This document shows, piece after piece, positions 37,004 to 53,921 of a stretch of DNA of 53,989 nucleotides. Each line of letters begins with the position of its first letter. Positions within the stretch are counted from its first letter, which is position 1. Both the position numbers and the translations under genes were made by a program. The DNA comes from Halodesulfurarchaeum sp. (GTDB lineage Archaea > Halobacteriota > Halobacteria > Halobacteriales > Halobacteriaceae): NCBI GenBank assembly GCA_042216015.1, contig JBDGUI010000042.1, positions 1 to 53,989 of the forward strand. Reading direction: 5' to 3'. The notes beneath the pieces are model-generated. The model ran no database searches. It saw only the letters and a list, made by a program, of their open reading frames with translations, and was not told the origin of the DNA.

Positions 37004-37098
37004 TTTTCCCGTTTTCTGCCGAGGTACCCCGATTTGGTCCTGTCGCGCCTATTCAGAAACGAATGGGAATCTTGTGATGAATATGAACAATGAGTTCT

Positions 37099-38487: not shown

Positions 38488-39200
38488 AGTCGTATCTTCT
38501 GAGGTATCATCTATTGCAGTTTTCCTTCGGGAGCATACGCTTTCACTGAGCCCGATAAACGGAACTGTAAGTATGTGGCCCCACATAGGTAGGAACCTTA
38601 GGGAGTTTCGACGAGATTCCACTCTTCTCTGCCGCTGTTCCGCGATTTCTGTGATGACCGACCTCCGCAGCACTTAGCTCCTGATGGGAAGGTATCGGTC
38701 GCATGTATCATCACTCCACTGCGGTAATGGGAGAATTGGGAAACATGCGAATTAGTGTGGTATGAACGGTCACGACAGTGAAAAACGGTGAGAGGGCATC
38801 ATACACGCTCTCGAACGTTTTGGTGAACCAGTTCACACCCTGGCAGGTAACCCTCAAGCGGTCATACGGTGAGCCGTGACACGAGATATAGACTGGAGCA
38901 ACCCCAGAAGTTTCGGCAAGCGGTCTGCAATCGTGCAAAAACAAATCCAAACTACGGAACCCGATACAACAATCGAATCCAAGGGACAAACCACACTCGA
39001 CCCTTCGATAGTGAAGAGACAGGTGATTAAAGCACAATACAGTAATCCACGTAAGGACATGAAACACAGACTCATTGCCTCCGAACCGAAAATATCGGAA
39101 CGCCACCAGTGGGTACTGACTCAAAGGAATCAATCGAAGAATAGTACGCCGCAAAATCACTATCCAATAGTCCCATCCCCCAGCGAGGAGGTCCGATAAT

Positions 39201-39623
39201 ATGGATAAATTCGGCAAACAGGCCGGTGTGGTCGCCCTCTTGCTCGGAGGCCTCGCAGTGATTGCACCCACATTCCTGTCCGGAACGACACGCCTGGGCG
39301 GCTATGGCGGAACGATGGGAGGGTACGGCGGAATGGGCGGGTACGGTGGCATGATGGGCGGGTACGGTGGCATGATGGGTGGACTTGGAGGCATGGGAGG
39401 ATACGGGATAGGCGGAACAATCTTCGGAATCGTCGGTCAACTCGGCTTCCTGTTGTTGCTCGTCGGCGGTGGGTACCTGTTGTATCGTGCTCTCGCCGAC
39501 GGCAAGAATACAACCATTCTCAACTCCTCCGATACCGCAATGGAGGAACTCCGCATCGCATACGCCCGGGGAGAAATATCCGAAGAAGAATTCGAGAAAC
39601 GACACAATCACCTTCAACAATAA
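39201..39623 (+). CDS. SHOCT-domain membrane protein with Gly/Met/Tyr-rich repeats
   Basis: Two TM segments flanking GGYGG(M)M repeats; C-terminal AMEELRIAYARGEISEEEFEKR. Confidence 0.85.
   Translation: MDKFGKQAGVVALLLGGLAVIAPTFLSGTTRLGGYGGTMGGYGGMGGYGGMMGGYGGMMGGLGGMGGYGIGGTIFGIVGQLGFLLLLVGGGYLLYRALADGKNTTILNSSDTAMEELRIAYARGEISEEEFEKRHNHLQQ
39333..39379 (+). repeat. Coding 21-bp tandem repeat (MGGYGGM)
   Basis: ATGGGCGGGTACGGTGGCATG twice, exactly, with degenerate copies upstream. Confidence 0.85.
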
Positions 39624-39625
39624 AA

Positions 39626-40249
39626 ATGAGAGAAAAGAATGAATCGACCACCCGTCGGAAGTTCTTAGCTGGGACGGCCGGAGTTGCACTCACAGGATTG
39701 GCTGGCTGTACCACGGGGGTGCTCCCCGGAGATAGGGATGGAGCCAATAGAACACTGTATATCGGTTCGTATCACTGGGGCTTCATCCTCCTCGATGAAA
39801 CCGGAACGGAACGAGACCAAGTCACACTCGATAAAGGATCCACTGTGGAGATCGTCGGATTCGGTGTCGAAGCCCACGAAGCAGTGGAATCACTCCCGGC
39901 CCCAATTCAAGAAGGATTACCCAGCCACGAAAAATTGGAATCCAGAAACGAAGAGCGGATTCCAGCGCCAAGTGGGGAGTATCTCCACGATGCCCTCGAA
40001 GTTGCCGAATCGGCATATCCGGATCACAGCCTCATGATCGTTCCAGCAGGGTGGGAGCAGAGAGGCGGTGGAATGATGAACGGCGGCATGATGGGCAGCC
40101 AGGGAGTGCTTCTTTCCCAAGAGGCCACTGAGCCAGATGTTCAAAAGGTAACTGCAGACCAGAGTGGCGCCTTTTCGATCGATTGTGGGACGTACTGTGG
40201 CTACGGGCATCAATACATGTACAGAACGGGAGCGATCATCGTCGAATGA
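39626..40249 (+). CDS. Tat lipoprotein with cupredoxin/CuA-type copper motif
   Basis: TRRKFL, LAGC lipobox, upstream His (YPDHSL) and CGTYCGYGHQYM, which is C-x3-C-x3-H-x2-M. Confidence 0.8.
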   Translation: MREKNESTTRRKFLAGTAGVALTGLAGCTTGVLPGDRDGANRTLYIGSYHWGFILLDETGTERDQVTLDKGSTVEIVGFGVEAHEAVESLPAPIQEGLPSHEKLESRNEERIPAPSGEYLHDALEVAESAYPDHSLMIVPAGWEQRGGGMMNGGMMGSQGVLLSQEATEPDVQKVTADQSGAFSIDCGTYCGYGHQYMYRTGAIIVE

Positions 40250-40752
40250 TGCGATTTGGCCGGTCACTAACTGGGCTCTTGGGGTTCGCCTTTGCGACGA
40301 TTCTCGTCTTCTGGTTTGCCCTGACTGGCAGCAGGTCTGCGGGAGTGATTATTAATCCGGGTGGCGTAGTCGGGAGCAATACTGCCGTACTGCTTGGCAT
40401 TTTGTTACTTGTGGCAAGTGGATTCTGGCTGGGTGCGAAGCGATTGAGCGATCGTTTCACCAGCGCTACATCCGGTGTGAAAATCGGCAACGAAGAAGAG
40501 ACGCTAGAAGCACTCAAACGTCGGTATGTGGCCGGCGAAATCGATGAGGCTGAATTCGAACGTCAGTTGGAGACGTTGTTCGAGAATGAATCGGTTGAAG
40601 CGGCCAAACGGCGCGTCGAAAATACCTCGACTACCCCAGAGAGCCCCCAAGAATCACAAACTGCACCTCCGGTGGAAGGTGGATCGACACCGGCCACTAT
40701 CCACCAGCGACGAGGAAGGAACACACGATCGGGACATGGTCGTTGCAAATAA
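40246..40752 (+). CDS. SHOCT-domain membrane protein
   Basis: Two TM segments then LEALKRRYVAGEIDEAEFERQLE; ATGA overlap with the previous gene. Confidence 0.8.
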   Translation: MMRFGRSLTGLLGFAFATILVFWFALTGSRSAGVIINPGGVVGSNTAVLLGILLLVASGFWLGAKRLSDRFTSATSGVKIGNEEETLEALKRRYVAGEIDEAEFERQLETLFENESVEAAKRRVENTSTTPESPQESQTAPPVEGGSTPATIHQRRGRNTRSGHGRCK

Positions 40753-40792
40753 CGAATCGGACATGAACAAACGAAATGACGACACGATACCC

Positions 40793-41206
40793 ATGACGTA
40801 TACCATAACAACAAGTATCGAAGCACCAGTTGAAGAGGTCATCTCTGAAACGACGAAACTCCTCAAGTCCGAAGGGTTCGGAGTCCTTGCGGACATCGAC
40901 GTTCAAGCCACGTTCGAGCAAAATATCGATGAAGAGATTGACCAGTACCGTATTTTGGGAGCCTGTAATCCTTCCTTGGCGCACGAGGGAATTACCGCTG
41001 AATCTGATCTGGGGGCACTTTTGCCATGTAACGTGGCGATCTACGAGGACGAAAATGACGACGTCGTCGTGAGTGCCGGTCATCCGAACCAACTCCTTGA
41101 AATCACCGAAAATCCAGCTCTAAACCCAATTGCAGATGATGTAAAATCACGTTTCGAACGGGTATTCGAGGAATTAGAAGCTCAATTCGTCGATGGAGGT
41201 ACCTAA
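40793..41206 (+). CDS. DUF302 domain protein
   Basis: LKSEGFGVLADIDVQ, YRILGACNP, LGALLPCNV. Alternative start at 40763. Confidence 0.85.
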   Translation: MTYTITTSIEAPVEEVISETTKLLKSEGFGVLADIDVQATFEQNIDEEIDQYRILGACNPSLAHEGITAESDLGALLPCNVAIYEDENDDVVVSAGHPNQLLEITENPALNPIADDVKSRFERVFEELEAQFVDGGT

Positions 41207-41208
41207 CG

Positions 41209-41517
41209 ATGAGCGAATCGGGGCAACTCAATTCCACGAAGATACTCGTCTTACTTATCGGAGGAATACTCCTGATTCCACTCGTTTCGATGGGCGGTGG
41301 ATTCATGGGCGCGGGAGGGATGATGGGGGGAGGGATGTTTCTATGGCCGATCCTTTTCCTCGGTGTTATTGCTTGGCATTTCTATCGTTCCCGAACCCGA
41401 ACCGGATCAGGCTCACAAAAAACGGCGTTGACGGAACTTCGTGAGCGATACGCCCGTGGAGATATTTCCGAGGAGGAATTTGAGAAACGGAGAGAAACGC
41501 TTCAGTTGCGAGATTGA
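41209..41517 (+). CDS. SHOCT-domain membrane protein with Gly/Met-rich loop
   Basis: MGGGFMGAGGMMGGGM between two TMs; ALTELRERYARGDISEEEFEKRR. Confidence 0.85.
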   Translation: MSESGQLNSTKILVLLIGGILLIPLVSMGGGFMGAGGMMGGGMFLWPILFLGVIAWHFYRSRTRTGSGSQKTALTELRERYARGDISEEEFEKRRETLQLRD

Positions 41518-41688
41518 CGGCCTTCCCGCAGTCCGCGAGATAAATAATCCAAGAGATCATTCCACAATATGAACGATATTCTCCCCACCCCAGTGAAAAG
41601 TAGACCCATATGGCGTAAACACATCAGAGATTAGAGACGCCTCTCTGATCGGATGATGCAAAAGTGTACGGCGCTCTATCTATATTGA

Positions 41689-42104
41689 ATGCCCGCTATG
41701 GTCGTTGTCGGTCACGGTTCCCAGCAATCTCAATTTCGTAGCCGAAACCTTATCGAACACTGTAACCGATTGCAATCTTCTATTGACGGTCTGGAGATAC
41801 AGGGAGCTTACTTGAAGCTGGATCCGAAGTTGCAAACAGCATTTCAATCGCTCGAAAGTGACTGTGTGTACATAGTTCCGGCATTACTTTCAGACGGGTA
41901 TTTCACCAACAAAGTCATTCCAGAGAGAGTCGATGCTGTGGTTGCCTCCGTTCCTGAACGAGATTGGAAAGTAACCTTTGGGTCCCTCATTGGGACCCAC
42001 AAAGGAATGGCCGAGGTGATTTATAATCAAGTTGAGTCCGCAATCGATTCAACTGATCTCGATGATATTGGATTGGCCGTTGTGGGCCACGGTTCACAAA
42101 GGAG
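41689..42104 (+). pseudogene. CbiX/SirB-like chelatase, truncated by IS insertion
   Basis: VVVGHGS, VPALLSDGYFT and a second VVGHGS repeat that is cut immediately by the IS terminal repeat. Confidence 0.72.
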
Positions 42105-43038
42105 GGGTGTGTTTAGAGGCTTGAAATCATGGGTTTCAGAGCCTGATCGCGGCTTCAATATTTTTCACGGCAGCTTTGAGCACGATTTCACGGAACTGAC
42201 CGAACCAGGTTCTCGCCCGAATCGTGTCGTCGAAGCGACGACGTAACGACGCAAAAACTGACTCGACGACCGATCGACGATGGTAGGTTTCGTCGTCGAT
42301 CCGAGCGTTGTGAGCTGCGTCGAGCGAGGAAAATTCACGATGCTTAATTACCGGTCTCACGCCTTCTTCCCGCAGATATCGGCGGAATTTATCCCAGTCA
42401 TATCCTTTGTCTGCAGTGATCGTTTCGACTCGGTGTAAATTTCGTTTCAACACCTGCCAGCCGATCTGCGTATCATGCGGTTGTGTCATCGAACAATGTA
42501 TATCTAGTATCAGACTGGTCGAACAATCAATCAAGGCTGTCGTCTTCACCGATCTAAAGGTGTAATTCGTCCGATTTGCGTAGTACTGGCTGGCAGCGAC
42601 CCGATCGAAGCCGGTTGCGTCGATTGCCTGGATCTCGCCGGTTTCCTGGAGCTGAGCAGATAACCGAAGCATCACCCGCCAGATCCGCATTTCTAGGTCC
42701 TGCTTACGCGTACACACGGTGGTGAAATCGGGGAGTTCAGCCACAGACAAGTCGAATTTCCCAACAATCCCCGGCATCTCGGACAAGACATCCATGAGCC
42801 GTCGATATGGATGCCCGAGGTACTCGCGAAGGCCGTGCAGTCCCACGATTACCCAGTCGGCGTAGCCGCCTTCACCCTTCTGAACCGGTGCTTCGTCGCC
42901 GTCACCGACGGCTTTTTTGGCAAGTGACACAACTTTGCTCGTGAAGCGGGAGAGTTTCGAAGGCACACTCGACTTTTTCCGCTTCACCTTCTAGTAATCC
43001 CGACATTTAGGCAATATTACTAGCGTCTAAACACGCCC
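42105..43038 (-). mobile_element. IS5-family (ISH1-group-like) insertion sequence, 934 bp
   Basis: 17-bp imperfect terminal inverted repeats GGGTGTGTTTAGAGGCT (42105-42121) and AGCGTCTAAACACGCCC (43022-43038), 15/17 match, enclosing a DDE transposase. Confidence 0.88.
42136..42987 (-). CDS. IS5-family DDE transposase
   Basis: PDFTT, AIDATGF, TADKGYD, YHRRSVVESVFASLRR. The start may be the GTG at 42966. Confidence 0.92.
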   Translation of the reverse strand: MKRKKSSVPSKLSRFTSKVVSLAKKAVGDGDEAPVQKGEGGYADWVIVGLHGLREYLGHPYRRLMDVLSEMPGIVGKFDLSVAELPDFTTVCTRKQDLEMRIWRVMLRLSAQLQETGEIQAIDATGFDRVAASQYYANRTNYTFRSVKTTALIDCSTSLILDIHCSMTQPHDTQIGWQVLKRNLHRVETITADKGYDWDKFRRYLREEGVRPVIKHREFSSLDAAHNARIDDETYHRRSVVESVFASLRRRFDDTIRARTWFGQFREIVLKAAVKNIEAAIRL

Positions 43039-43314
43039 AAGAACTTGGGACACGGCAAAGGAATTGGGTCACAGATATCTCACCTCACCTGATTAGCAAC
43101 CAAAAACTTCGCTCAACCTCTACATTGAATCCACCGAGTTTCTGCGGCCAACGAGCCGGTTTTTTGGAAACTGTCTCGTTCAAATCGATGTTGGACGACC
43201 GTTGTGGCTTGGTTCGATCAATTCCTCAAAAACGTCGTCCAAACTGCTATCTCATCTTCATATTTGTCGGTACCCACTCGGTGGCTCGAGGGCCCGTGAT
43301 TCTCCCAGATATAT

Positions 43315-45612
43315 CTAGCGGGTTGATCCGTCCGTTTCAAAGCGATCTCGAAACATTCGAGTCGGTGCTGGGCCGTATGCCTCGACCAGCAGTTGGAGCG
43401 TCCTGCCGAGAGCCCGGATCGCCGCGGTTCTCGAGACGAACCCGAGTTCCGCAGCGACGCGGTCCCACGATTGTCCCTGGAGCAGGCCGCGAATGAGGAG
43501 TCGGGCTTCCGTATCCGAGAGTTCCGCTCCCCCGTCGATCAGGCCGTAAAGGGCCAACGTTCGGAACGGTTCGGGGTCGACGCTGTACAGGCCAGGACCG
43601 AACGCCGCTCCGACGATAACACGCCACCTGTGTGCTGAAAAGGACACCGCCGGAGGATGGGTGCTCGCCTCGAGGACGGCGCGGATGACAGCCGGGTCGA
43701 CGTCCGCGAGTGAATCCCGGAGAACGCCCTCGATTCTGGTTCCGAACCAGTTCCCGTGAGCCTTGACGAGTGATTCACCCCATTCGGAGGCGGATTTCAG
43801 CATCAGCACTGAGTGTTCGCCGCTTCGCTCGTTACGGCTGGTCGAGAGGTGCACGGATTCGTAACCGTTTGCCTCCCAGAAGGAGACGAGTTCCGGGGTC
43901 GCGCCGAAGCCCGTCCCGAGCCAGTCTACGACCGGACCGAATTCGTCCTCGACGCGGGAGAGCAGGTGGCTTCCCACCCCACGGGATCGAACCGCGTGGT
44001 GGGTGGCGATCCGAACGATCCGGATGCCCACGGATTTTCCGGCCCCCTCGTCGCGGAGCTGGCTCATCAACACATCCGGGAGCATGTTCCCCCGGATCCG
44101 CTCTCCTACATACACCCGCTCGCGAATATCCGGCGGAAGCCCACCCTCGCGGGCGACCAGGGCGACGGCGACGACGTGACCGTCCCGGAGGAGCGCCCGA
44201 ACCGCGAGGTTCGAGCCATCGAGGAGTCTGGCGAGATCGTCCGGTTCGGTCCGGTAATGGGCCGTCACGAGCAGGCCGAACACCTCCCGGAGGAGCTGTT
44301 CGTTCCGGCGAAGCATTGCTGGATCGAGACGCCGATACGTGACGGACTCGGGCCATGCGTCCTCGATGACGGAGCCCGGAACGGGTCCGGCCCCGAGAAA
44401 CAGTGCCCGAGTGGCCCAGACCTCGACAGGATCGCCGGCCGCATAGCGAATCGGTTCGGTGAGCGAAACGTCGAACACCTCGTGACGGGCCGCCTCGAGA
44501 CTGGGACGAAAGCGGACCGCAAACCCCCGGCCCGACCCCTCATAGCCGTGGACCGTCGTGGTGTAGACGACTCGCGGGACCGAGAGCGTCGTTTCGAGAA
44601 TCGACACCGGCAGGGCAGCGGCCTCCTCTACGAACAGCACGGCCGCCGATTCCAGCCGTTCTCCCCGGTCCGTCGGGCTCACGAACTCGATCTCGCCGCC
44701 ACTCTCGGCCTCGATCCTGGAAGTGGGCGAGCCCGCCGTGGACCGAATGCCGTCGAGAGTGGGCAGCACTTCCAGGATCCGTTCGAAAAACGCCATCGCT
44801 GCCCGAGAACTCGGTCCGGTGACCAGGACCGACTCGCCGTTCGAGAGGAACCAGGCGGCGAGGAGGCCAGCGACGCTCGATTTACCCCGCCCCCTGTCGG
44901 CCTCGAGGACGGCAGCAGTCGGTCCCGTCGAGAGCGATGTGAGTTCCGCAAGCGCATCGGCCTGATCCTGGGTGAGACACGCTTCGATGAGGGGCGCTGG
45001 GACGGGGTCGGCCCCGGTGGGTCGCTCGATCGTCGGTGGTTCCAGCCGCGGGGCCTGCCCGGTTAGTCCGGTCCGGGGAACGCTCCCGTCATCGAGATCG
45101 ACGATGGCGATTCCCCGATGAACCGAGAGCGTTTCGACGAGTCGATCGCGAAAGTGACCGGTAACGTCCGCTATGGTATCAGGCGGCACCAACAGCGTCT
45201 CGTCGAACCCGTCGCGTCGTTCGGCCCAATCATCGAGCGGCGGCGTCAACAGGATCAGCAAGCCACCGCCGTCGACTGCTCCCACGACCGTTCCGAGATT
45301 GTTCGGCCGGCAGGCCTCCCGGCAATCGAGGACGACGGCCGTCCGCGTGGTTCCGAGCAGCTCACCCGTTCGGTCCGAAGCGAGGTGTTCGCAGGGAAGC
45401 CCCGACGGCGGGCCGACCACAGTCGTTTGATCGAAAACCGACTCCGGAGCCAATTCCGGACCCGCTGCTTCGAGAGCTGACCGGGCCGCCTCGGAGTGCC
45501 CCGATTCCCCGGCGAGGACGAGCAGTCGGCGCTCGTCGTGCCTGACAGCCTCCCGGGCGAGGTCGCCGACCCACTCCCAGTCCATCGACGGGAGTTGTGT
45601 GCGCCGGGACAT
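43315..45612 (-). CDS. tmcA: tRNA(Met) cytidine acetyltransferase
   Basis: GAVDGGGL, ADRGRGKS, TTTVHGYEGSGRGF, AHYRTEPDDL, IVRIATH GNAT domain. Confidence 0.94.
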   Translation of the reverse strand: MSRRTQLPSMDWEWVGDLAREAVRHDERRLLVLAGESGHSEAARSALEAAGPELAPESVFDQTTVVGPPSGLPCEHLASDRTGELLGTTRTAVVLDCREACRPNNLGTVVGAVDGGGLLILLTPPLDDWAERRDGFDETLLVPPDTIADVTGHFRDRLVETLSVHRGIAIVDLDDGSVPRTGLTGQAPRLEPPTIERPTGADPVPAPLIEACLTQDQADALAELTSLSTGPTAAVLEADRGRGKSSVAGLLAAWFLSNGESVLVTGPSSRAAMAFFERILEVLPTLDGIRSTAGSPTSRIEAESGGEIEFVSPTDRGERLESAAVLFVEEAAALPVSILETTLSVPRVVYTTTVHGYEGSGRGFAVRFRPSLEAARHEVFDVSLTEPIRYAAGDPVEVWATRALFLGAGPVPGSVIEDAWPESVTYRRLDPAMLRRNEQLLREVFGLLVTAHYRTEPDDLARLLDGSNLAVRALLRDGHVVAVALVAREGGLPPDIRERVYVGERIRGNMLPDVLMSQLRDEGAGKSVGIRIVRIATHHAVRSRGVGSHLLSRVEDEFGPVVDWLGTGFGATPELVSFWEANGYESVHLSTSRNERSGEHSVLMLKSASEWGESLVKAHGNWFGTRIEGVLRDSLADVDPAVIRAVLEASTHPPAVSFSAHRWRVIVGAAFGPGLYSVDPEPFRTLALYGLIDGGAELSDTEARLLIRGLLQGQSWDRVAAELGFVSRTAAIRALGRTLQLLVEAYGPAPTRMFRDRFETDGSTR

Positions 45613-45670
45613 GGGCGTTTCCCTCGTGCCTTCCGATTCCGCTCGTGGGCCCTCCCCCGTTTGGACACGC

Positions 45671-45785
45671 TTTTAAGCACGGGGTGCCGACTCAGGAATA
45701 CACCTCGCAGGGGTCGATGATGCTCCCAGCCCCAGGATCGAACGGCGGGGGAGCGAAAGCCCCTCTGTGAGAATGGTGATCCACT
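45671..45785 (+). promoter_or_regulatory. TATA box and structured 5' leader of rpl7ae (kink-turn-like)
   Basis: TTTTAAG at 45671; GCTCCC/GGGAGC and GGGGT/GCCCC helices around a CGATGAT/GAAA internal loop; GGTGA SD-like motif at 45775. Confidence 0.55.
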
Positions 45786-46148
45786 ATGCCAGTATACGTA
45801 GACTACGACGTTCCAGCCGACCTCCAGGATCGGGCCCTCGAGGCTCTCGAGGTCGCCCGAGACACCGGACGTATCAAGAAGGGGACAAACGAGACGACCA
45901 AGGCCGTCGAACGCGGCAACGCCTCGCTCGTCTTCGTCGCGGAGGACGTCTCCCCCGAGGAGATCGTCATGCACCTCCCCGAACTCGCCGACGAGAAGGG
46001 GATCTCGTGTGTCTTCGTCGACACACAGGACGACATCGGCCACGCCTGCGGCCTCGAAGTCGGGAGCGCGGCAGCCGCCATCGTCGACGACGGTGACGCC
46101 GAGGCCGACGTCGAGGACATCGCGACCAAAATCGAGGACCTGCGATAG
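45786..46148 (+). CDS. rpl7ae: 50S ribosomal protein L7Ae
   Basis: [29 protein letters not shown]. Confidence 0.97.
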
Positions 46149-46150
46149 CG

Positions 46151-46375
46151 ATGAGCGCTGAGGAATCGACTGAGGGCTCGACACCCGCCGAGGTCATCGA
46201 GATCGTCGGGAAAACCGGCATGCACGGCGAGGCCATGCAGGTGAAGTGTCGAATCAAGGAAGGGTCGAACCAGGGGCGCATCATCACGCGCAACGCCCTC
46301 GGTCCCGTCAGGGTCGGGGACGTCTTGCAGCTCCGCGAGACGGCCCGCGAGGCCGACTCCATCGGTGGTCAATGA
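46151..46375 (+). CDS. rps28e: 30S ribosomal protein S28e
   Basis: [24 protein letters not shown]. Confidence 0.96.
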
Positions 46376-46554
46376 TGCCACAGACACGCACCTGTGATTA
46401 TTGCGGTGACGAAATCGATCAGGGAACCGGCACGATGTACGTCAAGAAGAACGGCGAGACGACGTACTTCTGCTCCTCGAAGTGCGAGAAAAACGCCGGA
46501 CTCGGTCGCGAATCTCGCGACGTTGAGTGGGCCGGGCAGCGCGAGGACGAATGA
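46372..46554 (+). CDS. rpl24e: 50S ribosomal protein L24e
   Basis: CDYCG..I..GTG.MYV....[10 protein letters not shown]. Confidence 0.95.
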
Positions 46555-47006
46555 CGGAGCGAACCTTCGTCATGGTCAAGCCGGATGGCGTCCAGCGAGG
46601 ACTCATCGGGGAGATCGTCTCGCGGTTCGAGGAGCGCGGGCTGAAACTGGTCGGCGCGAAACTGATGCAGATCGATCAGGAACTCGCCGAACAGCATTAC
46701 GCCGAACACGAGGACAAGCCCTTCTTCGAAGCCCTCACGGGTTTCATCACCTCGGGCCCCGTTCTCGCGATGGTATGGGAGGGACAAGACGCGATCGCCC
46801 AGGTCCGGACGATGATGGGTGCGACGGATCCGGCCGAAGCTGCCCCGGGCACTATTCGCGGTGACTTCGGGCTGGACCTCGGTCGGAACGTCATTCACGG
46901 GTCGGACACCGAGCCCGGGTCCGCCGAGCGAGAGATCGACCTGTTCTTCGAGGCGGACGAACTCGAGGACTACGATCGCATCGACGAGGCTTGGCTCTAC
47001 GAGTAG
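46551..47006 (+). CDS. ndk: Nucleoside diphosphate kinase
   Basis: [31 protein letters not shown]. Confidence 0.97.
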
Positions 47007-47054
47007 GCAAATTTCAGTGAAAGGCGGTTTTCCGGGGCGGACGAACGACCAGCT

Positions 47055-47566
47055 ATGGAGTTCGAGGTCGGAAAGGGAGGCATCGCCGAACAGTTCGCGG
47101 GCTGTCTCGTGAACGCGGCGAGAACGAGTATGGGATCCGGCGTGGCCGGGGCGCTCCGTCGTGGGGAAAGGGGCCCGATCAACGAGGCCGCAATGGAGCA
47201 AGGGCCGATCGAAATCGGCGAGGTGGCTGTCACCGACGCGTTCGAACTCGATGCCGAGGACGTCATTCACGCCGCCGCGATACCTCACTTCGGTGACGGC
47301 ACGGCGAGGGCGAGAGCATCGAGCAGGCAACGAAAAACGCACTCGAAACCGCCGACGAACTGGGCTGTGAGTCGATGATGATCCCGGCTCTCGGGTGTGG
47401 GGTCGCCGGGTTCCCCCTCGAGAAGGGGGCCGAAATTATCGGGGAAACCATAGCCGAATTCGAGGCGGAAACGCTCGAGGAGGTGGTGTTCATCGCCTAC
47501 TCCAACGGGGAGTACGAAGCCGTCGAGCGCGTGACCGAACCGTACCGACACGAGGGGGTCGGTTGA
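47055..47566 (+). pseudogene. Macro domain (ADP-ribose-binding) protein, frameshifted
   Basis: LVNAA..MGSGVAGAL and VIHAA lie in one frame. ESIEQATKNALETADELGCESMMIPALGCGVAGF continues in the -1 frame from about 47312. Confidence 0.8.
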
Positions 47567-47727
47567 ACCCACACCCCTGGCTCGGCCGAACCCTTCACCG
47601 GTCTGGCACCGAACGAAACCCAGCAGCCGCCAAAGAAGAGAACCGTGTCAAGGGAATGGGCGATTTTTGCCCCTAGCAATGTTTAGGGTCGTGGGGTTCC
47701 TATACACAACCATCGATCGAGGCCACC

Positions 47728-48333
47728 ATGTCACAGAGCACTAACCAAACGCCTCGGTCCCTGGAACTCGGCCTGTCCGTCAGGCCGACACAGGAGTGTC
47801 CCGTACGAATGCTCGCACCCAACGTATCAGAAGTCCGTCATCACCCCCACGAGAGGGGGCTCCAGTGTGAAATCCTACTCGCGGGCCAGGATTCGGATTT
47901 TCCCCGGCGGTATCACACCTTCAATGACGGTAAGGCCCCCTGTCCGGCGACAATCTTTAGAGAATACGACACCGTACCGAATGTCAAACGCGTCGAGGAT
48001 GATTCGCTCTTGATCGTCACTCACCCACCGTCCCGTGAAGCCGTTCAGAAGCTATTGAGCGATCTCGAGACCGTCTCCGATCGAGTCGAGATCAAGTGGA
48101 TCTCCGATTCAGCCGAGACGAGGACGACCTCGGAGCGAACCGTCGATCTCGAGATCTTGACCGAAAAACAGCGGGAGGCCATCGAACTGGCCGTCGAATC
48201 GGGGTATTACGACCAGCCACGAGCGACGACAATATCCGAACTGGCAGAGGCCTGCAATATTAGCCAGTCGGCCATGTCACAGCGGCTTCACACGGCCGAG
48301 CGGAAATTGCTCCAGAGAATTCTCTCTCAGTAA
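47728..48333 (+). CDS. Bat/DmsR-type (HTH_10) transcriptional activator
   Basis: C-terminal LTEKQREAIELAVESGYYDQPRATTISELA..ISQSAMSQRLHTAERKL; N-terminal Cys residues (ECP, QCE, PCP). Confidence 0.85.
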   Translation: MSQSTNQTPRSLELGLSVRPTQECPVRMLAPNVSEVRHHPHERGLQCEILLAGQDSDFPRRYHTFNDGKAPCPATIFREYDTVPNVKRVEDDSLLIVTHPPSREAVQKLLSDLETVSDRVEIKWISDSAETRTTSERTVDLEILTEKQREAIELAVESGYYDQPRATTISELAEACNISQSAMSQRLHTAERKLLQRILSQ

Positions 48334-48473
48334 CCCAAGACTCGTCTCTCAACAACCACGGCTCGCTTCTCAGTAAACCTTCGGTAGGTCCGTAGCGGGG
48401 TCCAATTATTGGGAGTGAAGCTCGGTCTTCTGTAGACAGTGAGCGATCGAGTGAATCTGCTGGCTTAAAAACT

Positions 48474-48504
48474 ACCGTTGTGTATAAGAAATGCATCTAA
48501 CGGT
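48474..48504 (+). promoter_or_regulatory. Putative promoter/operator of the oxidoreductase operon
   Basis: TATAAG at 48483, bracketed by the inverted repeat ACCGTT (48474) / AACGGT (48499). Confidence 0.45.
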
Positions 48505-48527
48505 GTTTCCGCTCCATTTCTAGGTGC

Positions 48528-49259
48528 ATGGACGAGCGTCATGGCAACGACCGACCCGAGCCGGCAGTGCCGGACGGCGGGACCTCGCGGCGGAACTTCC
48601 TGAAAGGGGCCGCCGTCGGGGCCGGCGTCGTCGGGACAGGGGGCACAGCGGGCGTGCTCGCATTGAACAACGAGGATACGGGCCAGTCGGCGAAGGCGAT
48701 CCCGGCCTCGGAAGGGTATCTGCTCGTCGACCCGGCGAAGTGTACCGGGTGTACGAGTTGCATGATCGCCTGTTCGACGGCCCACGAGGGGAAGGCGAGC
48801 CAGTCACTGGCGAGAATCCAGATCACCCAGAATCCCTTCGAAGGCTTCCCGGAAGATATCAGTCAGGAGCAGTGTCGACAGTGTACCTATCCGGCGTGTG
48901 TGGAGGCCTGCCCGACGGGCGCACTCGAGGCCGACGAGGAGAACGGCAACGTCCGAATGGTCGACGAGAACAAATGTGTCGGCTGTCAGCGCTGTCTGGC
49001 GGCCTGCCCGTATACGCCCCACCGGAACACCTGGAACCACGAGAAGCAGTACGCACAGAAGTGTGATCTCTGTGCGGAGACGCCCCACTGGGATCAAGAA
49101 GGCGGCCCGGACGGCTCACAGGCCTGTGTCGAGGTCTGCCCGGTCGGGGCGATCCAGTTCACGGATGAAATCCCGACTCAGGTCGGGAACGAGGGATACC
49201 AGGTGGATCTCCGAAGCGAACAGTGGGAGCAACTCGGCCTCTACGGAGGTGAGATCTGA
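48528..49259 (+). CDS. Tat-signal 4x[4Fe-4S] electron-transfer subunit (DmsB/YdhY-like)
   Basis: SRRNFLKG twin-Arg motif; 16 Cys in four groups (CTGCTSCMIAC, CRQC..PACVEACP, CVGCQRCLAACP, KCDLC..ACVEVCP). Confidence 0.9.
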   Translation: MDERHGNDRPEPAVPDGGTSRRNFLKGAAVGAGVVGTGGTAGVLALNNEDTGQSAKAIPASEGYLLVDPAKCTGCTSCMIACSTAHEGKASQSLARIQITQNPFEGFPEDISQEQCRQCTYPACVEACPTGALEADEENGNVRMVDENKCVGCQRCLAACPYTPHRNTWNHEKQYAQKCDLCAETPHWDQEGGPDGSQACVEVCPVGAIQFTDEIPTQVGNEGYQVDLRSEQWEQLGLYGGEI

Positions 49260-51316
49260 TGAACGGACACATGGGGAAGATCCTTCGATTGGACCTGACG
49301 AATCGAACGAGTTCGACGATCGACACGAGCGAGTACGAGGAGTGGGTCGGTGGACACGGAATGGGCTCGGCCATCTTCTTCGACCTCGTCGATGACAAGA
49401 CGGTGGACGCGTTCTCGGCAGAGAACGTCATCACGATGATGACCTCGCCGCTTGCCGGGACGTTGGCTCCAGCTGCGGCGGGGCGTACCGAAGTGCAGGG
49501 AATTAGCCCCCAACCCTACCCGACAGAGTGGTTCAGTCGGAGTAATTTCGGCGGACGGTTCGCGGGAATGTTGAAATATGCCGGCTATGACGGGATCGTC
49601 ATCGAGGGGAAAGCCGACAAACCAGTGTGGGTCAACGTTGTCGACGATGAAGTCACCTTCGAATCCGCCGATTCGCTTTGGGGAATGAGTACGTGGGAAA
49701 CCCAATCAGAGATATGGAACGAGGTCGATCACGGTGACGGCTGGCAGCACCTGGATTCAGGTCGTGACACGGGCCAAACGACCCAGCCACCAGCCATCGC
49801 GACAATCGGTCGGGCGGGAGAGACACAAACCAGAATTGGCGCGATTATACACGACGCGGGTAACGGTGCCGGGAATGCTGGATTCGGTTCGGTCTGGGGC
49901 TTCAAGAATCTCAAGGCCGTTAGCGTCCTCGGGACTGGCAGTATCGAGATGGCCGATCCATCCAAATTGATCGAAGATCGAATCTGGTCGGAAACAAACT
50001 ACGGATATGACCTCGAGGAACCACCGACCCCATCAAACTACTCGTTCCCGGGTGCTCCGGGAAGCGGTGCCAGTTCCATCGTCACAGAACCGAGCCGGGC
50101 CACCGGGTGCATGGGCTGTCACAAGAATTGTAGAAAACGCACAGCCAGTACGAGAGGGAATGAAAGTACGTGTGTCGACGTACTTTGGTACGATGCCCAT
50201 GACAAGGCCGTTCATGGAGAATATACCATCGAAACCGCAAAAGCAGCTGATCTCGCCCAAAAGTTCGGTATCAACACCTACAGTCTCGAAGCAGGCCTGC
50301 TCTATTTAAAAGACCTGCACAAAAAAGGGGTCCTTGGACCTGACGCTGAAGTGAAGGCCGACCTTCCGTGGGAGGAATTCGGCGAGGCATCGTTCCCCGC
50401 AGAATTAATTCGAAAAATTATCGAACGGGAGGGAATCGGGGCCGATATAGCCGAAGGATTCGCCAGAGCTGCTGAAAAGTGGGGACGGCTTGAAGAAGAT
50501 TTGGCCTCCGGAATTCTCCCGCTTCAATATTGGGGATACCCACAACACTACGACGCCCGCACCGAGGTCGAATGGGGATACGGAAGTATCCTTGGAGAGC
50601 GTGATATTAACGAGCACGACTTCAATTGGGTGGTGTACTGGCAGCCGAGTATCGCAAAGCTCACGGGCACAGATCCGATAATTAGCGCGGAAGATCTTGC
50701 AGGCCTTATCAAAGAGAAGACCACCCCATACAACGTCGTGCCGGATTATAGCGATGAGGGTATCTATTCGGAAAACATGGCCCAGTTGGTGGCCTGGCAT
50801 CGGCATTACACTCGCTTCTGGAAACAGTCGGTGCTCTACTGTGACTGGGCCTACGCCGACTTCGTGAATCCTTACGGAGAGGGAATGTCCGGACTTACTC
50901 CGGAAGGCGAGCCAAAATTCTTCAACGACGTGACGGGGATGGACCTTACCTTTGAAGAGGGGATCGAAAAGGGACGAAAGATCTGGAACCTTGATCGGGC
51001 CATCTGGACGCTGCAAGGGCGCCACCGAGATCAGGAGGAATTGTCAGAATATACCTACGACATAGGAGCTACTCCAGGGTACACGACGTACGAAGTCCCA
51101 TACTGGGTTCCGGTTAAAGAAAACGGAACTTGGGAGTTCAAAAACGTTTCCGGGCGAACACTGGACAAACAGAAGTTCAATGACTGGAAGTCGAAATTCT
51201 ACGAGTTCGAAAATTGGGACACGGAGACAGGACGGCCCACCCGTTCGGCGCTAGAAGATCTCGGGCTCGGAAACGTTGCAGACGAACTCGACGCTGCAAA
51301 CAAACTTCCGAGGTGA
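49259..51316 (+). CDS. aor: Aldehyde:ferredoxin oxidoreductase-family W/Mo-pterin enzyme (YdhV-like)
   Basis: GKILRLDLT, SNFGGRFAGMLKYAGYDGIVIEGKA, IGRAGE, G.KNLKAV, Fe-S motif CMGCHKNC plus distal Cys, G.PTRSALEDLGL. No signal peptide. Confidence 0.9.
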   Translation: MNGHMGKILRLDLTNRTSSTIDTSEYEEWVGGHGMGSAIFFDLVDDKTVDAFSAENVITMMTSPLAGTLAPAAAGRTEVQGISPQPYPTEWFSRSNFGGRFAGMLKYAGYDGIVIEGKADKPVWVNVVDDEVTFESADSLWGMSTWETQSEIWNEVDHGDGWQHLDSGRDTGQTTQPPAIATIGRAGETQTRIGAIIHDAGNGAGNAGFGSVWGFKNLKAVSVLGTGSIEMADPSKLIEDRIWSETNYGYDLEEPPTPSNYSFPGAPGSGASSIVTEPSRATGCMGCHKNCRKRTASTRGNESTCVDVLWYDAHDKAVHGEYTIETAKAADLAQKFGINTYSLEAGLLYLKDLHKKGVLGPDAEVKADLPWEEFGEASFPAELIRKIIEREGIGADIAEGFARAAEKWGRLEEDLASGILPLQYWGYPQHYDARTEVEWGYGSILGERDINEHDFNWVVYWQPSIAKLTGTDPIISAEDLAGLIKEKTTPYNVVPDYSDEGIYSENMAQLVAWHRHYTRFWKQSVLYCDWAYADFVNPYGEGMSGLTPEGEPKFFNDVTGMDLTFEEGIEKGRKIWNLDRAIWTLQGRHRDQEELSEYTYDIGATPGYTTYEVPYWVPVKENGTWEFKNVSGRTLDKQKFNDWKSKFYEFENWDTETGRPTRSALEDLGLGNVADELDAANKLPR

Positions 51317-51321
51317 TAATC

Positions 51322-51693
51322 ATGCGACTCACACAACCAGAGGAAGCGGTGAAATCCGCGCTCACTGAGGAGGTAGAGTACGAAGAGCACTTCATCGGGC
51401 ACAAAGCCCATGCGATGGCGGGAAGTTCCAAGATGCGACTCTACTCGCTCGAAGAAGTCCTGAACTTCATCCACGTTGATGATAGGGAGAAACTTCTCGA
51501 AACGGGGTCTGGCGGGACCATTGGATATGTCGATTTCGGCGAACTTGCGGATTGGACCAAAAACGTGCTCGGGGACGATGAGTTAGCTTCCGCCATCATT
51601 GAAACAGCATCGGACGGCGATAATTACAAAGAACAGGCCGAGGCGGTTTCGAGTCTCATCAACGAGCGACTGGAACAGGCTCGGGAGGACTAA
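51322..51693 (+). CDS. Small acidic hypothetical protein within the AOR operon
   Basis: 123-aa ORF with 5-bp and 4-bp gaps to its neighbours and an AGGTGA SD-like site upstream; DFGELADWTKNVLGDDELA segment. Confidence 0.75.
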   Translation: MRLTQPEEAVKSALTEEVEYEEHFIGHKAHAMAGSSKMRLYSLEEVLNFIHVDDREKLLETGSGGTIGYVDFGELADWTKNVLGDDELASAIIETASDGDNYKEQAEAVSSLINERLEQARED

Positions 51694-51697
51694 AATA

Positions 51698-52585
51698 ATG
51701 CGCTGGAAACGACCCTTGATCACTCTCGGTTTGCTCGTCACCTTCGTCGGCGGGTATCTGTTCGCCGAGAAAGCAGCAGAGCTGTATCTCTGGCAAGCCT
51801 TTGAATCCGGATCGTACATCTACGACGTGCTGTTCGAAACGCTGACCTGGGTCCTTCCCGCAACTATCGCGGGAGGACTGTTCTTCGGCGCGATCCACGC
51901 CGCCTACTCGGATCCCGAACCCACCATCCGAGAGGGTCTCGTCCGTCGCCACGAGGCTTTCGGGGCCTTCTTCGAGCACTGGGCGGCCACCGTTGGAATG
52001 CTTTTTCTCATCGGCTCTGGAGTCTTGCTGGGCTTCCTCTTCGTGCCCCGATTTGTCAGCACGACAGAAACAGTGGGCCTAACGATCAACGTTCACTGGG
52101 CAGGAGCGGCCATTCTCTTGTTCGCAGCATCTTACCACCTCGGTGGCCTCATCATGGGAGACCATCGTGAAATCCTGCCAAAATCAGGCGACCTCAAAAA
52201 CGCTGTCAGAAACGTGGCAAGCTATCTCCGACTGGGCAACGAACCAGAGGCGGAGAAGTACCTCCCGATTCAGCGGGTGAGTTACCTGATCTGGGCAGGG
52301 TTGATCGCCGTCGTCGCGATAACGGGGCTCGTGAAAGCTGCTGACTACCCCTGGGAGGTTGGTGGGGGGTTGATGTCGGCGATGACATATTTGCACGATA
52401 TCTTTGCCCTGTTCACCATTCTGTTTCTGGTTGCACACGTCGGAGCTGTCCTCATGCCGTCGCACCTCCAGCAGCTCCGGTCCCAGATCACTGGATGGAT
52501 ACCAATAGAATACGTTCGGTCCCACCACTCACGATGGCTCCCAGAACAGACTGGATCTAATAAGTCAAAGAGTGGAGGCGATTGA
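51698..52585 (+). CDS. Di-heme cytochrome b membrane anchor (FdnI/YdhU-like)
   Basis: Four His in TM helices (FEHW, NVHW, YLHD, VAHV), KY.P.QR, ITGW...HH..W; two extra N-terminal TMs. Confidence 0.87.
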   Translation: MRWKRPLITLGLLVTFVGGYLFAEKAAELYLWQAFESGSYIYDVLFETLTWVLPATIAGGLFFGAIHAAYSDPEPTIREGLVRRHEAFGAFFEHWAATVGMLFLIGSGVLLGFLFVPRFVSTTETVGLTINVHWAGAAILLFAASYHLGGLIMGDHREILPKSGDLKNAVRNVASYLRLGNEPEAEKYLPIQRVSYLIWAGLIAVVAITGLVKAADYPWEVGGGLMSAMTYLHDIFALFTILFLVAHVGAVLMPSHLQQLRSQITGWIPIEYVRSHHSRWLPEQTGSNKSKSGGD

Positions 52586-52595
52586 TAAAAACCAC

Positions 52596-53921
52596 ATGCA
52601 ATCGGTACTTCTCGTCAACGCCCCGGTCGGTGAAACCTCGGCAGGTAGCCATGCAGCCCTCCACCCGCCGCTCGGTCTCGGGTATATCGGAGCCGTCCTT
52701 CGAGAGCGCGGCCACACTGTTTCAGCGCGTGACCTGAACGTGACCGGAATGAGTGGGGCTGTCGTCGAACGGGCGGTCAAACGAAGCGACGCGGATGTCC
52801 TCGGCATCTCGGCCCACACGGAAACCTATCCAAACGCGCTCGAAATCGCTCGCACAGCCACTGACGTGAACCCGGACCTGACTGTCTTGCTGGGCGGTCC
52901 CCACGCCAGCGTGAACGACGCGGAAGCAGCCACAGTCGAGGCAATTGACTACGTCGTCCGGGGTGAAGGAGAACTGACCACGGCTGAGCTGGTCAAGACG
53001 ATCACTGAACGGAGCGATCCAGAAGCAGTCGACGGGATCACGTTCGAGCGGGACGGCCAACTGATCCAAACACCCGACCGACCGTATATTCAAGATCCGA
53101 CCGAACTCCCGTTTCCAGCCCGTGATCTGTTCCCGCTAGAACTGTACCAACATCCGGGTAACATGCTCTTCTCAAGAGGGGGATGTCCGTTTCAGTGCCA
53201 TTTCTGTGCGGTCAACAACATCTGGGGCGATGGAATGCGCCGATACAGAGCAGTTGAGGACGTTCTCGAGGAAGTGAAGTTACTCGTCGATAAATATGGG
53301 TTCAAGCAGATCAACTTCGCGGACGACACGTTTACCCTTCGACGAGACAGGACAGAAGCGCTACTCGCAGAACTTCGGGACCTCGATACGCGGCACTCCT
53401 GGAATTTCACATGCTCGACGCGAGTAGATCTGGTCGACGGAGATCTCTTGGAGACCCTCGCCAAAGCGGGGTGTTCCGGAATTCAGTTCGGGGTCGAGGC
53501 GGGCTCCCAAAAGATCCTCGATTCGATCGGGAAGAAAATCTCGCTGACAGAAGCCAGGGATGCAATCGAAGCCGCTGTCGACCTCGACATGGACGTCCTG
53601 GCTTCCTTCATGTTTCCACATCCTGACGATACGGAAACGACGATACGCCAGCAGGCTGCCTTCATGCGAGATATCAAAGACACTGGGGCCGCGATTTCAC
53701 TGGCCTTCACCACCCCGTATCCGGGAACAGTGTACGACGAATACGTGAAAAACGGCGATATCGAAGTGAGAGCCGATAGCTATGACGAATACGACGCCAA
53801 GCACCTTATAATAGACACGAAGAACCTCTCCTTCCAAGAGGTAGAACGGCTGAGGGACGAAGTCATCGAAAAAAGTGGGCTCAAGAAACGTACGTCCACG
53901 ACGACAGCGACTGGGCCCTGA
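52596..53921 (+). CDS. Cobalamin-dependent radical SAM protein
   Basis: B12-binding domain (PPLGLGYIGA, LGIS, LGGPHA, GEGE) plus SRGGCPFQCHFC, FADDTF, GVEAGS, PYPGT. Confidence 0.92.
   Translation: MQSVLLVNAPVGETSAGSHAALHPPLGLGYIGAVLRERGHTVSARDLNVTGMSGAVVERAVKRSDADVLGISAHTETYPNALEIARTATDVNPDLTVLLGGPHASVNDAEAATVEAIDYVVRGEGELTTAELVKTITERSDPEAVDGITFERDGQLIQTPDRPYIQDPTELPFPARDLFPLELYQHPGNMLFSRGGCPFQCHFCAVNNIWGDGMRRYRAVEDVLEEVKLLVDKYGFKQINFADDTFTLRRDRTEALLAELRDLDTRHSWNFTCSTRVDLVDGDLLETLAKAGCSGIQFGVEAGSQKILDSIGKKISLTEARDAIEAAVDLDMDVLASFMFPHPDDTETTIRQQAAFMRDIKDTGAAISLAFTTPYPGTVYDEYVKNGDIEVRADSYDEYDAKHLIIDTKNLSFQEVERLRDEVIEKSGLKKRTSTTTATGP

Follow-up and report, generated by a model that had tools for sequence, protein, structure and literature searches.

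In a 53,989 nt stretch of Halodesulfurarchaeum sp. DNA (contig JBDGUI010000042.1 of assembly GCA_042216015.1, read on the forward strand and called the window below) we have analysed five closely packed genes, G1 to G5, that follow a regulatory gene, G0 (Table 1). We lean modestly towards the view, drawn from the predicted proteins, that the five genes specify a single Mo- or W-bis-pyranopterin oxidoreductase of the YdhV, or Class V WOR, type, anchored in the membrane and facing outwards. The subunit architecture set out below can be predicted with considerably greater confidence, and the most likely role of the cluster would be to exchange electrons with the menaquinone pool as an exported, Cys-ligated Mo/W-pterin oxidoreductase. 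The first-pass annotation of this DNA had described a candidate new respiratory system, and its account of five tightly spaced, same-strand genes and their domains proved correct in every particular against open reading frame (ORF) coordinates and Pfam matches, including the 1-bp overlap and the gaps of 4-10 bp. The claim of novelty did not survive, since the combination of a Tat-targeted iron-sulfur (FeS) protein, an AOR-like enzyme and a membrane subunit is that of the published Class V WOR and YdhYVWXUT systems. The cluster is thus of the YdhV/Class V kind, which is already known and has no assigned function, and is not a new kind of system.

G1 has a TAT_signal match at residues 19-38, with the motif SRRNFLK, together with Fer4 dicluster domains, and its 16 cysteines fall into four groups; it is 32% identical to YdhX and 30% identical to YdhY of E. 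coli. Among the proteins of the cluster the RR motif is found on G1 only, and it is retained in 56 of 58 G1 homologues, the remaining two being cut by contig ends. The AFOR_N domain begins at residue 6 of G2, and the catalytic subunit therefore has no signal peptide of its own, in keeping with the earlier proposal that it is exported by Tat hitch-hiking. The membrane anchor would be G4, which matches Ni_hydr_CYTB (PF01292) at 1.6e-14, with 54.5 bits against a cut-off of 30.1. It has 11 histidines; across 17 aligned sequences three of them, H94, H233 and H247, do not vary and a fourth, H133, shows at least 90% conservation, with H233 and H247 placed 14 residues apart on one helix. Hydropathy gives six hydrophobic segments behind a positively charged N-terminus, and the resulting topology places H133/H233 near the outer face of the membrane and H94/H247 near the inner face. 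This four-His pattern is that of FdnI, to which G4 adds two N-terminal helices, and the description of G4 as a four-His cytochrome b forming an FdnI-like di-haem membrane anchor is borne out.

Table 1. Predicted genes of the cluster and the regulator that precedes it, with positions on contig JBDGUI010000042.1.
Gene	Predicted product	Position	Strand	Spacing
G0	Regulator	47728-48333	+	Ends 194 bp before G1
G1	Tat-signal 4x[4Fe-4S] electron-transfer subunit (WorS / YdhX-YdhY / FdnH-NrfC type)	48528-49259	+	
G2	YdhV-type AOR/WOR-family catalytic subunit, without signal peptide	49259-51316	+	1 base in common with G1
G3	Acidic accessory protein, 123 residues	51322-51693	+	5-bp gap after G2
G4	Six-helix di-haem cytochrome b	51698-52585	+	4-bp gap after G3
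G5	Class-B (cobalamin-domain) radical SAM enzyme	52596-53921 (ATG start)	+	10-bp gap after G4

The catalytic subunit matches AFOR_N (2.4e-52) and AFOR_C (7.1e-35), both beyond the Pfam cut-offs, and its profile matches in the PDB are AOR, FOR, WOR5 and BamB. G2 contains only five cysteines. Three of these, C284, C287 and C291, align with C288, C291 and C295 of PfAOR and together with the distal C528 make up the [4Fe-4S] ligand motif; in a 20-sequence alignment of the G2 family C291 shows at least 90% conservation, while C284, C287, C528 and the fifth cysteine, C305, do not vary. The top NCBIfam model is YdhV (NF007354), at 226 bits, with the next best at 18 bits, and BLAST aligns G2 with E. 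coli YdhV over the full length at 25% identity (E 5e-46). Comparison by hhalign of the G2 family (n=20) with YdhV from E. coli and Proteus and CsWOR41L from Cetobacterium somerae gave a probability of 100 and E 2.6e-55 over 625 columns, spanning the full length, so that ydhYVWXUT is a closer counterpart than the 'loosely similar' cluster of the first-pass annotation.

The nature of the active site is indicated by C305, which pairs with Cys336 of YdhV in both the BLAST and the hhalign alignments. According to the accessible text of a 2025 review, Cys336 is an extra metal ligand in YdhV, present also in BamB as Cys322; the YdhV and BamB clades lack the second shell of the aldehyde-oxidising AORs (Thr243, Glu313, Tyr427 and His448 in PfAOR numbering); and the characterised aldehyde-oxidising clades are all without a protein ligand to the metal. 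By the pairing of C305, G2 departs from this last feature of AOR sensu stricto, FOR and GAPOR. Of the four second-shell positions, Thr243 lies in a stretch of PfAOR that is inserted with respect to the G2 family profile, Glu313 falls opposite L309 or D307 according to the alignment used, and Tyr427 and His448 lie beyond PfAOR residue 424, where the alignments stop. We regard it as quite probable that the active site is of the Cys-ligated YdhV type, and because a site of this YdhV/BamB kind is not that of the aldehyde oxidisers, the substrate is probably not a simple aldehyde.

The first-pass annotation had instead assigned the cluster as an outward-facing aldehyde:menaquinone oxidoreductase that converts external aldehydes to acids. 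Such an activity would agree with the AOR-family fold, with the statement in the same review, as far as its text is accessible, that characterised family members except BamB act on aldehydes or related carbonyl or sulfonate compounds, and with an FdnI-like anchor, which suits a low-potential donor; moreover, D307 can be aligned at the Glu313 position, so the acid-base residue may be kept. It is opposed by the invariant C305, which the review ties to the non-aldehyde YdhV and BamB clades, and by the Thr243 segment, to which nothing in the family profile corresponds, and the unaligned Tyr427/His448 region. Of the Class V subunits only CsWOR41L has been purified; the recombinant protein has a preference for W and was inactive on 46 aldehydes, although it was assayed without its small subunit (PMC13328260, accessible text). 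An aldehyde-oxidising role appears quite improbable to us. BamB itself is, like G2, a member of the AOR family, and its Cys ligand on the metal and want of an aldehyde-type second shell would probably be further points of likeness, but it is cytoplasmic and its partners BamC-I are absent from the window cluster; in the PDB profile search with G2 it scores below the classical AORs (157 against 194 bits), and none of the alignments obtained covers the region of BamB Cys322.

The family position of G2 was examined in a search of one genome per species, covering 185,579 species genomes, from which 199 relatives were confirmed and 79 loci kept. A quick maximum-likelihood tree of 77 sequences was built from 67 locus sequences (loci without a full-length match, and locus L002, being left out), the window protein, two named haloarchaeal proteins, three YdhV/CsWOR41L sequences and four classical AORs from plasmid records; a fragmented Natranaerobius plasmid record was set aside. 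The 70 sequences of the G2 family share a stem of 1.07 (support 100); their neighbour in the tree is the YdhV group, with a stem of 1.2, and the classical AORs stand apart (SH-aLRT 99). The phylogenetic check that the first-pass annotation had suggested thus sets G2 next to YdhV and CsWOR41L and apart from the classical AORs, while giving it a long stem of its own. That the family is a deep sister lineage of YdhV, at 25-28% identity, is weakly indicated, because the tree holds only four classical AOR outgroups and three clade-41 sequences. Within the family the window protein groups with proteins of H. formicicum (97), Halalkaliarchaeum (97) and Methanohalarchaeum (100), and this four-member archaeal group is nested in a clade (99) otherwise made up of Actinomycetota, Bacillota and Chloroflexota, a pattern that fits transfer between domains. 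Members of the lineage are frequent in anaerobic Actinomycetota, Bacillota, Chloroflexota and Desulfobacterota, and a few archaea have them too.

A 2026 classification of WOR enzymes (PMC13328260), in its accessible text, characterises Class V by further membrane subunits and by a small FeS subunit that bears either a Tat signal or a transmembrane domain, places the class only in clade 41, which includes YdhV and for which only bacterial genera are listed, and attributes to it more than one tenth of the AOR/WOR family and no known activity or physiological role. The window cluster has the Tat-signal FeS subunit (G1), the membrane-associated subunit (G4) and the Cys336-equivalent cysteine (C305), and has no YdhW-type protein after the catalytic gene. 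It shares with Class V, YdhYVWXUT and CsWOR41 an AOR-family subunit without a signal peptide, a Tat poly-ferredoxin, a PF01292 cytochrome b, a cysteine aligned with Cys336 and a small gene of no assigned role immediately after the catalytic gene. It differs from them in possessing one FeS protein rather than two, in lacking YdhT, in the two extra helices of G4, which is barely similar to E. coli YdhU (E 0.002), in a G3 unrelated to YdhW or its C. somerae counterpart, and in a B12-radical SAM partner, an archaeal host and a separate, long-stemmed lineage. The main text of the classification makes no mention of 'radical SAM', 'Haloferax' or 'haloarchaea', no archaeon is named in its accessible Class V sections or in three of its supplementary files, and those files contain none of Archaea, Halobacteria, Halodesulfurarchaeum, Halalkaliarchaeum, Methanohalarchaeum, Thioalkalivibrio or Aneurinibacillus. 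The earlier remark that no haloarchaeal example has been characterised is true as it stands, and on the evidence of the same classification it extends to Class V activity in any organism. On the C. somerae plasmid (L081:8112-12621) the CsWOR41 catalytic gene is followed by a gene for a 174-residue YdhW-like protein (34% identity to YdhW), fdhD, tatA, tatC and moeA, a set that, in contrast to the window, provides for its own export and maturation.

FdnGHI and the group 1 [NiFe] hydrogenases likewise combine Tat hitch-hiking of the catalytic subunit with a 4x[4Fe-4S] subunit and a four-His di-haem cytochrome b, two of whose His are spaced by 14 residues on the last helix. Here, in contrast, the catalytic subunit belongs to the AOR superfamily and not to the DMSO (dimethyl sulfoxide) reductase or NiFe enzymes, G1 has no C-terminal membrane helix, and the cytochrome has six helices and not four.

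The association of the five genes is not confined to the window. A tblastn survey of all loci with the window proteins as queries yielded 88 AOR-like copies, 85 of them family copies of at least 45% identity, which we divide into 44 near relatives (at least 53%) and 41 distant ones (45-52%); partner counts are given as found over assessable copies. Beside the near relatives G1 was found in 38/39, G3, directly downstream, in 43/44, G4 in 27/28 and G5 in 32/43, so the neighbourhood survey called for by the first-pass annotation shows the partners recurring; the corresponding figures for the distant relatives are 26/38, 14/37, 9/28 and 3/35. All four partners, in varying gene order, stand beside 19 of the 85 copies, 17 of which are among the near relatives and include the archaeal loci L003 and L041; in L003 (Methanohalarchaeum) the order is FeS-AOR-small protein-radical SAM-cytochrome. 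The same six-gene order as in the window is annotated in H. formicicum HTSR1. Recurrence of these partners around homologues from dozens of unrelated genomes shows that the arrangement is not due to chance. G1 and G3 occur together beside 49 copies, G1 only beside 14, G3 only beside two and neither beside seven; G3 thus follows the Tat-linked form of the enzyme. Wherever a radical SAM gene is present and cytochrome b can be assessed, cytochrome b is present too, the converse failing in 14 copies. Tandem paralogue arrays are common, with three copies in L032 and two each in L008, L010, L014 and L056. The array units have the order cytochrome-FeS-AOR-small protein (L032:711-13800) and close with one radical SAM gene, or two in L008. 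The arrays suggest diversification of substrates with a shared helper.

Several departures from the module were also seen. Some 7 kb downstream of the module in Candidatus Methanohalarchaeum thermophilum there is a second FeS and AOR-like pair (L003:18224-20955), 29% identical to G2 in its catalytic member, with none of the genes for the small protein, cytochrome b or the radical SAM enzyme adjoining it. Certain loci of Desulfobacterales, Thermoanaerobaculales and gammaproteobacteria have a multihaem cytochrome c with Cytochrome_C7/c3 hits after the FeS-AOR pair (L068:12333-13571 and L072, four ORFs in all), again without cytochrome b, small protein or radical SAM gene. An 11-member subclade of Acidobacteriota and Desulfobacteraceae (L044, L051-L054, L057, L059, L062, L077, L078 and L080) lacks all four partners and presumably represents a cytoplasmic form. 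Finally, 16 loci of Coriobacteriia and Actinomycetota have, on the opposite strand just upstream of cytochrome b, a 446-residue ORF without a Pfam hit (for example L035:6828-8168), which may encode a divergently transcribed regulator, or may have arisen on the antisense strand of high-GC DNA through crude ORF calling.

Expression of the orthologous genes has been recorded in H. formicicum HTSR1, in the accessible part of the Halodesulfurarchaeum genome paper (Table S11), as single counts of unstated replication for sulfur-, thiosulfate- and DMSO-respiring cells. The AOR HTSR_0753 gave 0/15/0 and HTSR_0751, annotated as 'formate dehydrogenase gamma', 0/2/0; the radical SAM protein HTSR_0750, the hypothetical protein HTSR_0752 and the 4Fe-4S protein HTSR_0754 each gave 0/0/0, and HTSR_0755, a 'bacterio-opsin activator HTH', occupies the position of G0. 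HTSR_0753 is presumed to be the orthologue of G2 from annotated synteny and from the 78% identity of G2 to an H. formicicum protein; two other AOR genes of HTSR1 have unrelated neighbours and different expression patterns. The sole expression clue for the cluster thus points to thiosulfate respiration, and the host genus and this restriction to thiosulfate-respiring cells agree with the link to anaerobic respiration that had been proposed. The accessible text of the paper assigns thiosulfate reduction to a CISM enzyme, HTSR_0625-0630, which is absent from a strain unable to use thiosulfate, and reports that HTSR1 contains (methyl)menaquinone and that its thiosulfate respiration yields equimolar sulfide and sulfite, the sulfite accumulating without use as an acceptor and without disproportionation. 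It does not discuss the cluster, and 'aldehyde', 'radical SAM' and 'cytochrome b' do not appear in its main text, as far as that is accessible.

Given the architecture predicted from sequence, a working scheme can be proposed in which every step draws on knowledge of the related families. G2 would acquire its fold, its pterin cofactor and a single [4Fe-4S] cluster in the cytoplasm, bind G1 and cross the membrane on the G1 Tat signal, and the G1-G2 pair would then dock on the di-haem cytochrome b. The electron path would comprise the active site, the [4Fe-4S] cluster of G2, the four clusters of G1, the outer haem (H133/H233), the inner haem (H94/H247) and the (methyl)menaquinone pool. In the cytoplasm, G5 may mature the enzyme through a radical reaction, either a methylation or a rearrangement, that acts on the catalytic subunit, on its cofactor or on G3.

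Cytochromes of the G4 type are quinone-reducing in formate dehydrogenase-N and the hydrogenases and quinol-oxidising in thiosulfate reductase. Since they work both ways in known enzymes, the cytochrome type does not fix the direction of electron flow. We lean weakly, hardly beyond an even balance, towards flow from a donor to quinone in a redox loop like that of formate dehydrogenase-N. The best-scoring named relatives of G4 in NCBIfam are formate dehydrogenase gamma and hydrogenase cytochrome b, at 33 and 30.8 bits, ahead of the thiosulfate reductase subunit PhsC (NF011582) at 21.7 bits; at cut-offs of 115.85, 121.5 and 204, G4 is an equivalog of none of the three. In addition, the module occurs in Methanohalarchaeum (L003), a methyl-reducing methanogen, in which an extra electron-input module is easier to place than an extra terminal reductase. 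The opposite direction would make the complex a terminal reductase that passes electrons from (methyl)menaquinol through the di-haem cytochrome b to an external acceptor, perhaps a sulfur oxyanion or a related compound, during thiosulfate respiration. PhsC, a member of the same cytochrome family, does work in the quinol-oxidising direction, and the tandem paralogue arrays of Coriobacteriia and Bacillota resemble terminal-reductase families, two points that tell against the donor direction. The detection of the H. formicicum orthologue in thiosulfate-grown cells only would also suit a reductase, as would the inclusion of DmsR in the regulator family of G0 and the treatment of the E. coli counterpart, which a 2014 survey termed a predicted periplasmic 'Ydh reductase' and whose operon is listed as FNR-regulated. 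Set against these are the CISM enzyme to which thiosulfate reduction in HTSR1 is already assigned, the equimolar accumulation of sulfite, which is no acceptor, the order of the G4 scores and the presence of the cluster in a methanogen. We consider a terminal reductase possible, though less likely than not.

Several observations weigh against the reading of the five genes as a single YdhV-type enzyme. In the 20-sequence MAFFT alignment a gap is placed so that C305 and Cys336 fall in different columns. Identity to YdhV is only 25-28%, and the stems of 1.07 and 1.2 are long. None of the six proteins G0 to G5 reaches any equivalog cut-off in NCBIfam. The homologues of G1, G3 and G5 went undetected in the accessible H. 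formicicum proteome, the figures of which are single counts. Lastly, because 11 of the 43 near relatives have no local radical SAM gene, G5 may be dispensable or unrelated.

G5 is, by its domains, motif and fold matches, a predicted cobalamin-dependent class-B radical SAM enzyme. The B12-binding (6.9e-23) and Radical_SAM (1.1e-24) domains both exceed their Pfam cut-offs, and the cysteines of the CxxxCxxC motif, C197, C201 and C204, are invariant in 30 sequences. An alternative GTG start, further upstream at 52572, would give a 14-bp overlap with G4; 68 bp remain between the end of G5 and the end of the window. G5 is not an equivalog of any named enzyme in NCBIfam (HpnJ, BchE, ApyD, the MCR Gln methylase and others), the best scores being 160-162 bits against cut-offs of 481-750, and its relatives carry generic names only. 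Its AlphaFold2 (AF2) model (pLDDT 88) is nearest to AprD4, CysS, MgmA and TsrM; AprD4, a diol dehydratase, is the top match, and AprD4, CysS, MgmA (an MCR glutamine methylase), TsrM, TokK and OxsB all match at similar scores (TM 0.65-0.76). Because class-B enzymes of several chemistries score alike, the chemistry of G5 cannot be read from the fold. MgmA is like G5 in its two domains, B12-like and radical SAM, in its similar length and in being among the four best structural matches; TIGR04014, however, gives G5 114.7 bits, far below its cut-off of 360, and the small-molecule enzymes AprD4, CysS, TsrM, TokK and OxsB are equally close.

From the recurrent linkage of G5 to the enzyme and the precedent of MgmA we tentatively suggest, at somewhat less than even chances, that G5 matures the oxidoreductase. 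A different explanation is that the radical SAM gene, and perhaps G3 too, is a mere neighbour serving another pathway. G5 does lie at the end of the cluster, it is missing beside 32 of 35 distant relatives as well as the 11 near ones, its relatives are only generically named, and its H. formicicum homologue was undetected in the accessible proteome, in which the AOR was detected. Against this stand its occurrence alongside the oxidoreductase, with changing gene order, in Actinomycetota, Bacillota and Bacteroidota as well as three archaeal lineages, its presence exclusively with cytochrome b where that can be assessed, and its place, as one or two genes, at the close of multi-copy arrays (L032, L008, L041). 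We judge a separate pathway to be unlikely. A literature search found no paper joining aldehyde ferredoxin oxidoreductase with a gene cluster containing a B12-binding radical SAM enzyme, and none on aldehyde ferredoxin oxidoreductase in Methanonatronarchaeia.

G3 is acidic, with 28 Asp and Glu against 11 Lys and Arg in its 123 residues, has no signal peptide, and matches no family in Pfam or NCBIfam. Its own family comprises 455 representative clusters at E<=0.001, and among the best 150 of the 455 profile matches nearly all are stand-alone proteins of 109-236 residues; W78, D85, L88 and R116 are invariant in a 44-sequence alignment. The AF2 model has a pLDDT of 93 and gave no fold match in the PDB at E<=0.001; the fold, confidently predicted, would be new. 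Homology to YdhW was considered and rejected (BLAST E 4.7; hhalign probability 1.5% against YdhW and its C. somerae counterpart). DUF5752 (PF19027) was a lead from the ESM Atlas only: G3 itself has no Pfam hit, and a weak match to this domain was found in three of 44 family members (best E 0.021). G3 is an accessory protein specific to this enzyme lineage, and could serve as a third subunit or as a Tat, assembly or export chaperone.

The regulator upstream has a clear HTH_10 domain (2.4e-19) of the bacterio-opsin-activator type, whereas its match to DmsR_N is marginal, at 27.8 bits where the cut-off is 27, and partial, spanning only profile positions 75-139 of 143. Judged by gene position alone, G0 is a possible activator of the cluster. 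A search of the intergenic region between G0 and G1 (48334-48527) gave no convincing repeat or operator. By eye, an AT-rich stretch with TTAAAAA and TATAAG at 48463-48500, 30-60 nt 5' of the G1 start, could be an archaeal TATA box.

The remainder of the window is usual haloarchaeal chromosome, with ribosomal proteins, RpoD, mevalonate kinase, RNase J and GluRS, the last 86-88% identical to its counterparts in metagenome-assembled genomes of Halodesulfurarchaeum sp. and 82% identical to that of H. formicicum. The cluster has a G+C content of 0.563, against 0.638 at positions 1-37000, and third-position G+C (GC3) values of 0.61-0.78, against 0.75-0.86 in six housekeeping genes; a DDE transposase gene lies at 42136-42987. 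Because the identity of G2 to the H. formicicum protein is close to housekeeping divergence, the cluster is probably old within the genus. The region preceding it, 37001-47700, is also lowered in G+C (0.575) and contains an ArsP_1 permease with a YHS/TRASH tail (37099-38673), DUF302 and SHOCT proteins, a CbiX-like gene (41689-42246) and the DDE transposase; it resembles a mosaic region, possibly acquired. At the start of the window a tyrosine recombinase/phage integrase gene (219-1199) adjoins a 550-bp stretch of lower G+C.

As far as our searches show, three features are new: the recurrent cobalamin-type radical SAM partner, the small protein with a confidently predicted fold and no solved counterpart, and a cultured relative of the host in which the cluster was detected only during thiosulfate respiration. 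A more far-reaching proposal, which we hold to be rather doubtful, is that the genes form a respiratory module of their own, in which maturation of a Tat-exported, Cys-ligated Mo/W-pterin enzyme requires both a cobalamin-type radical SAM enzyme and a small protein of new fold, and in which the complex exchanges electrons with a sulfur compound from thiosulfate respiration. If this were true, it would represent a form of maturation that has not been described among pterin enzymes, and an energy-conserving reaction so far unrecognised in Halodesulfurarchaeum, Methanonatronarchaeia and many uncultured anaerobes. With the three new handles, the function of YdhV-type enzymes becomes testable in a simple organism with a defined respiratory menu.

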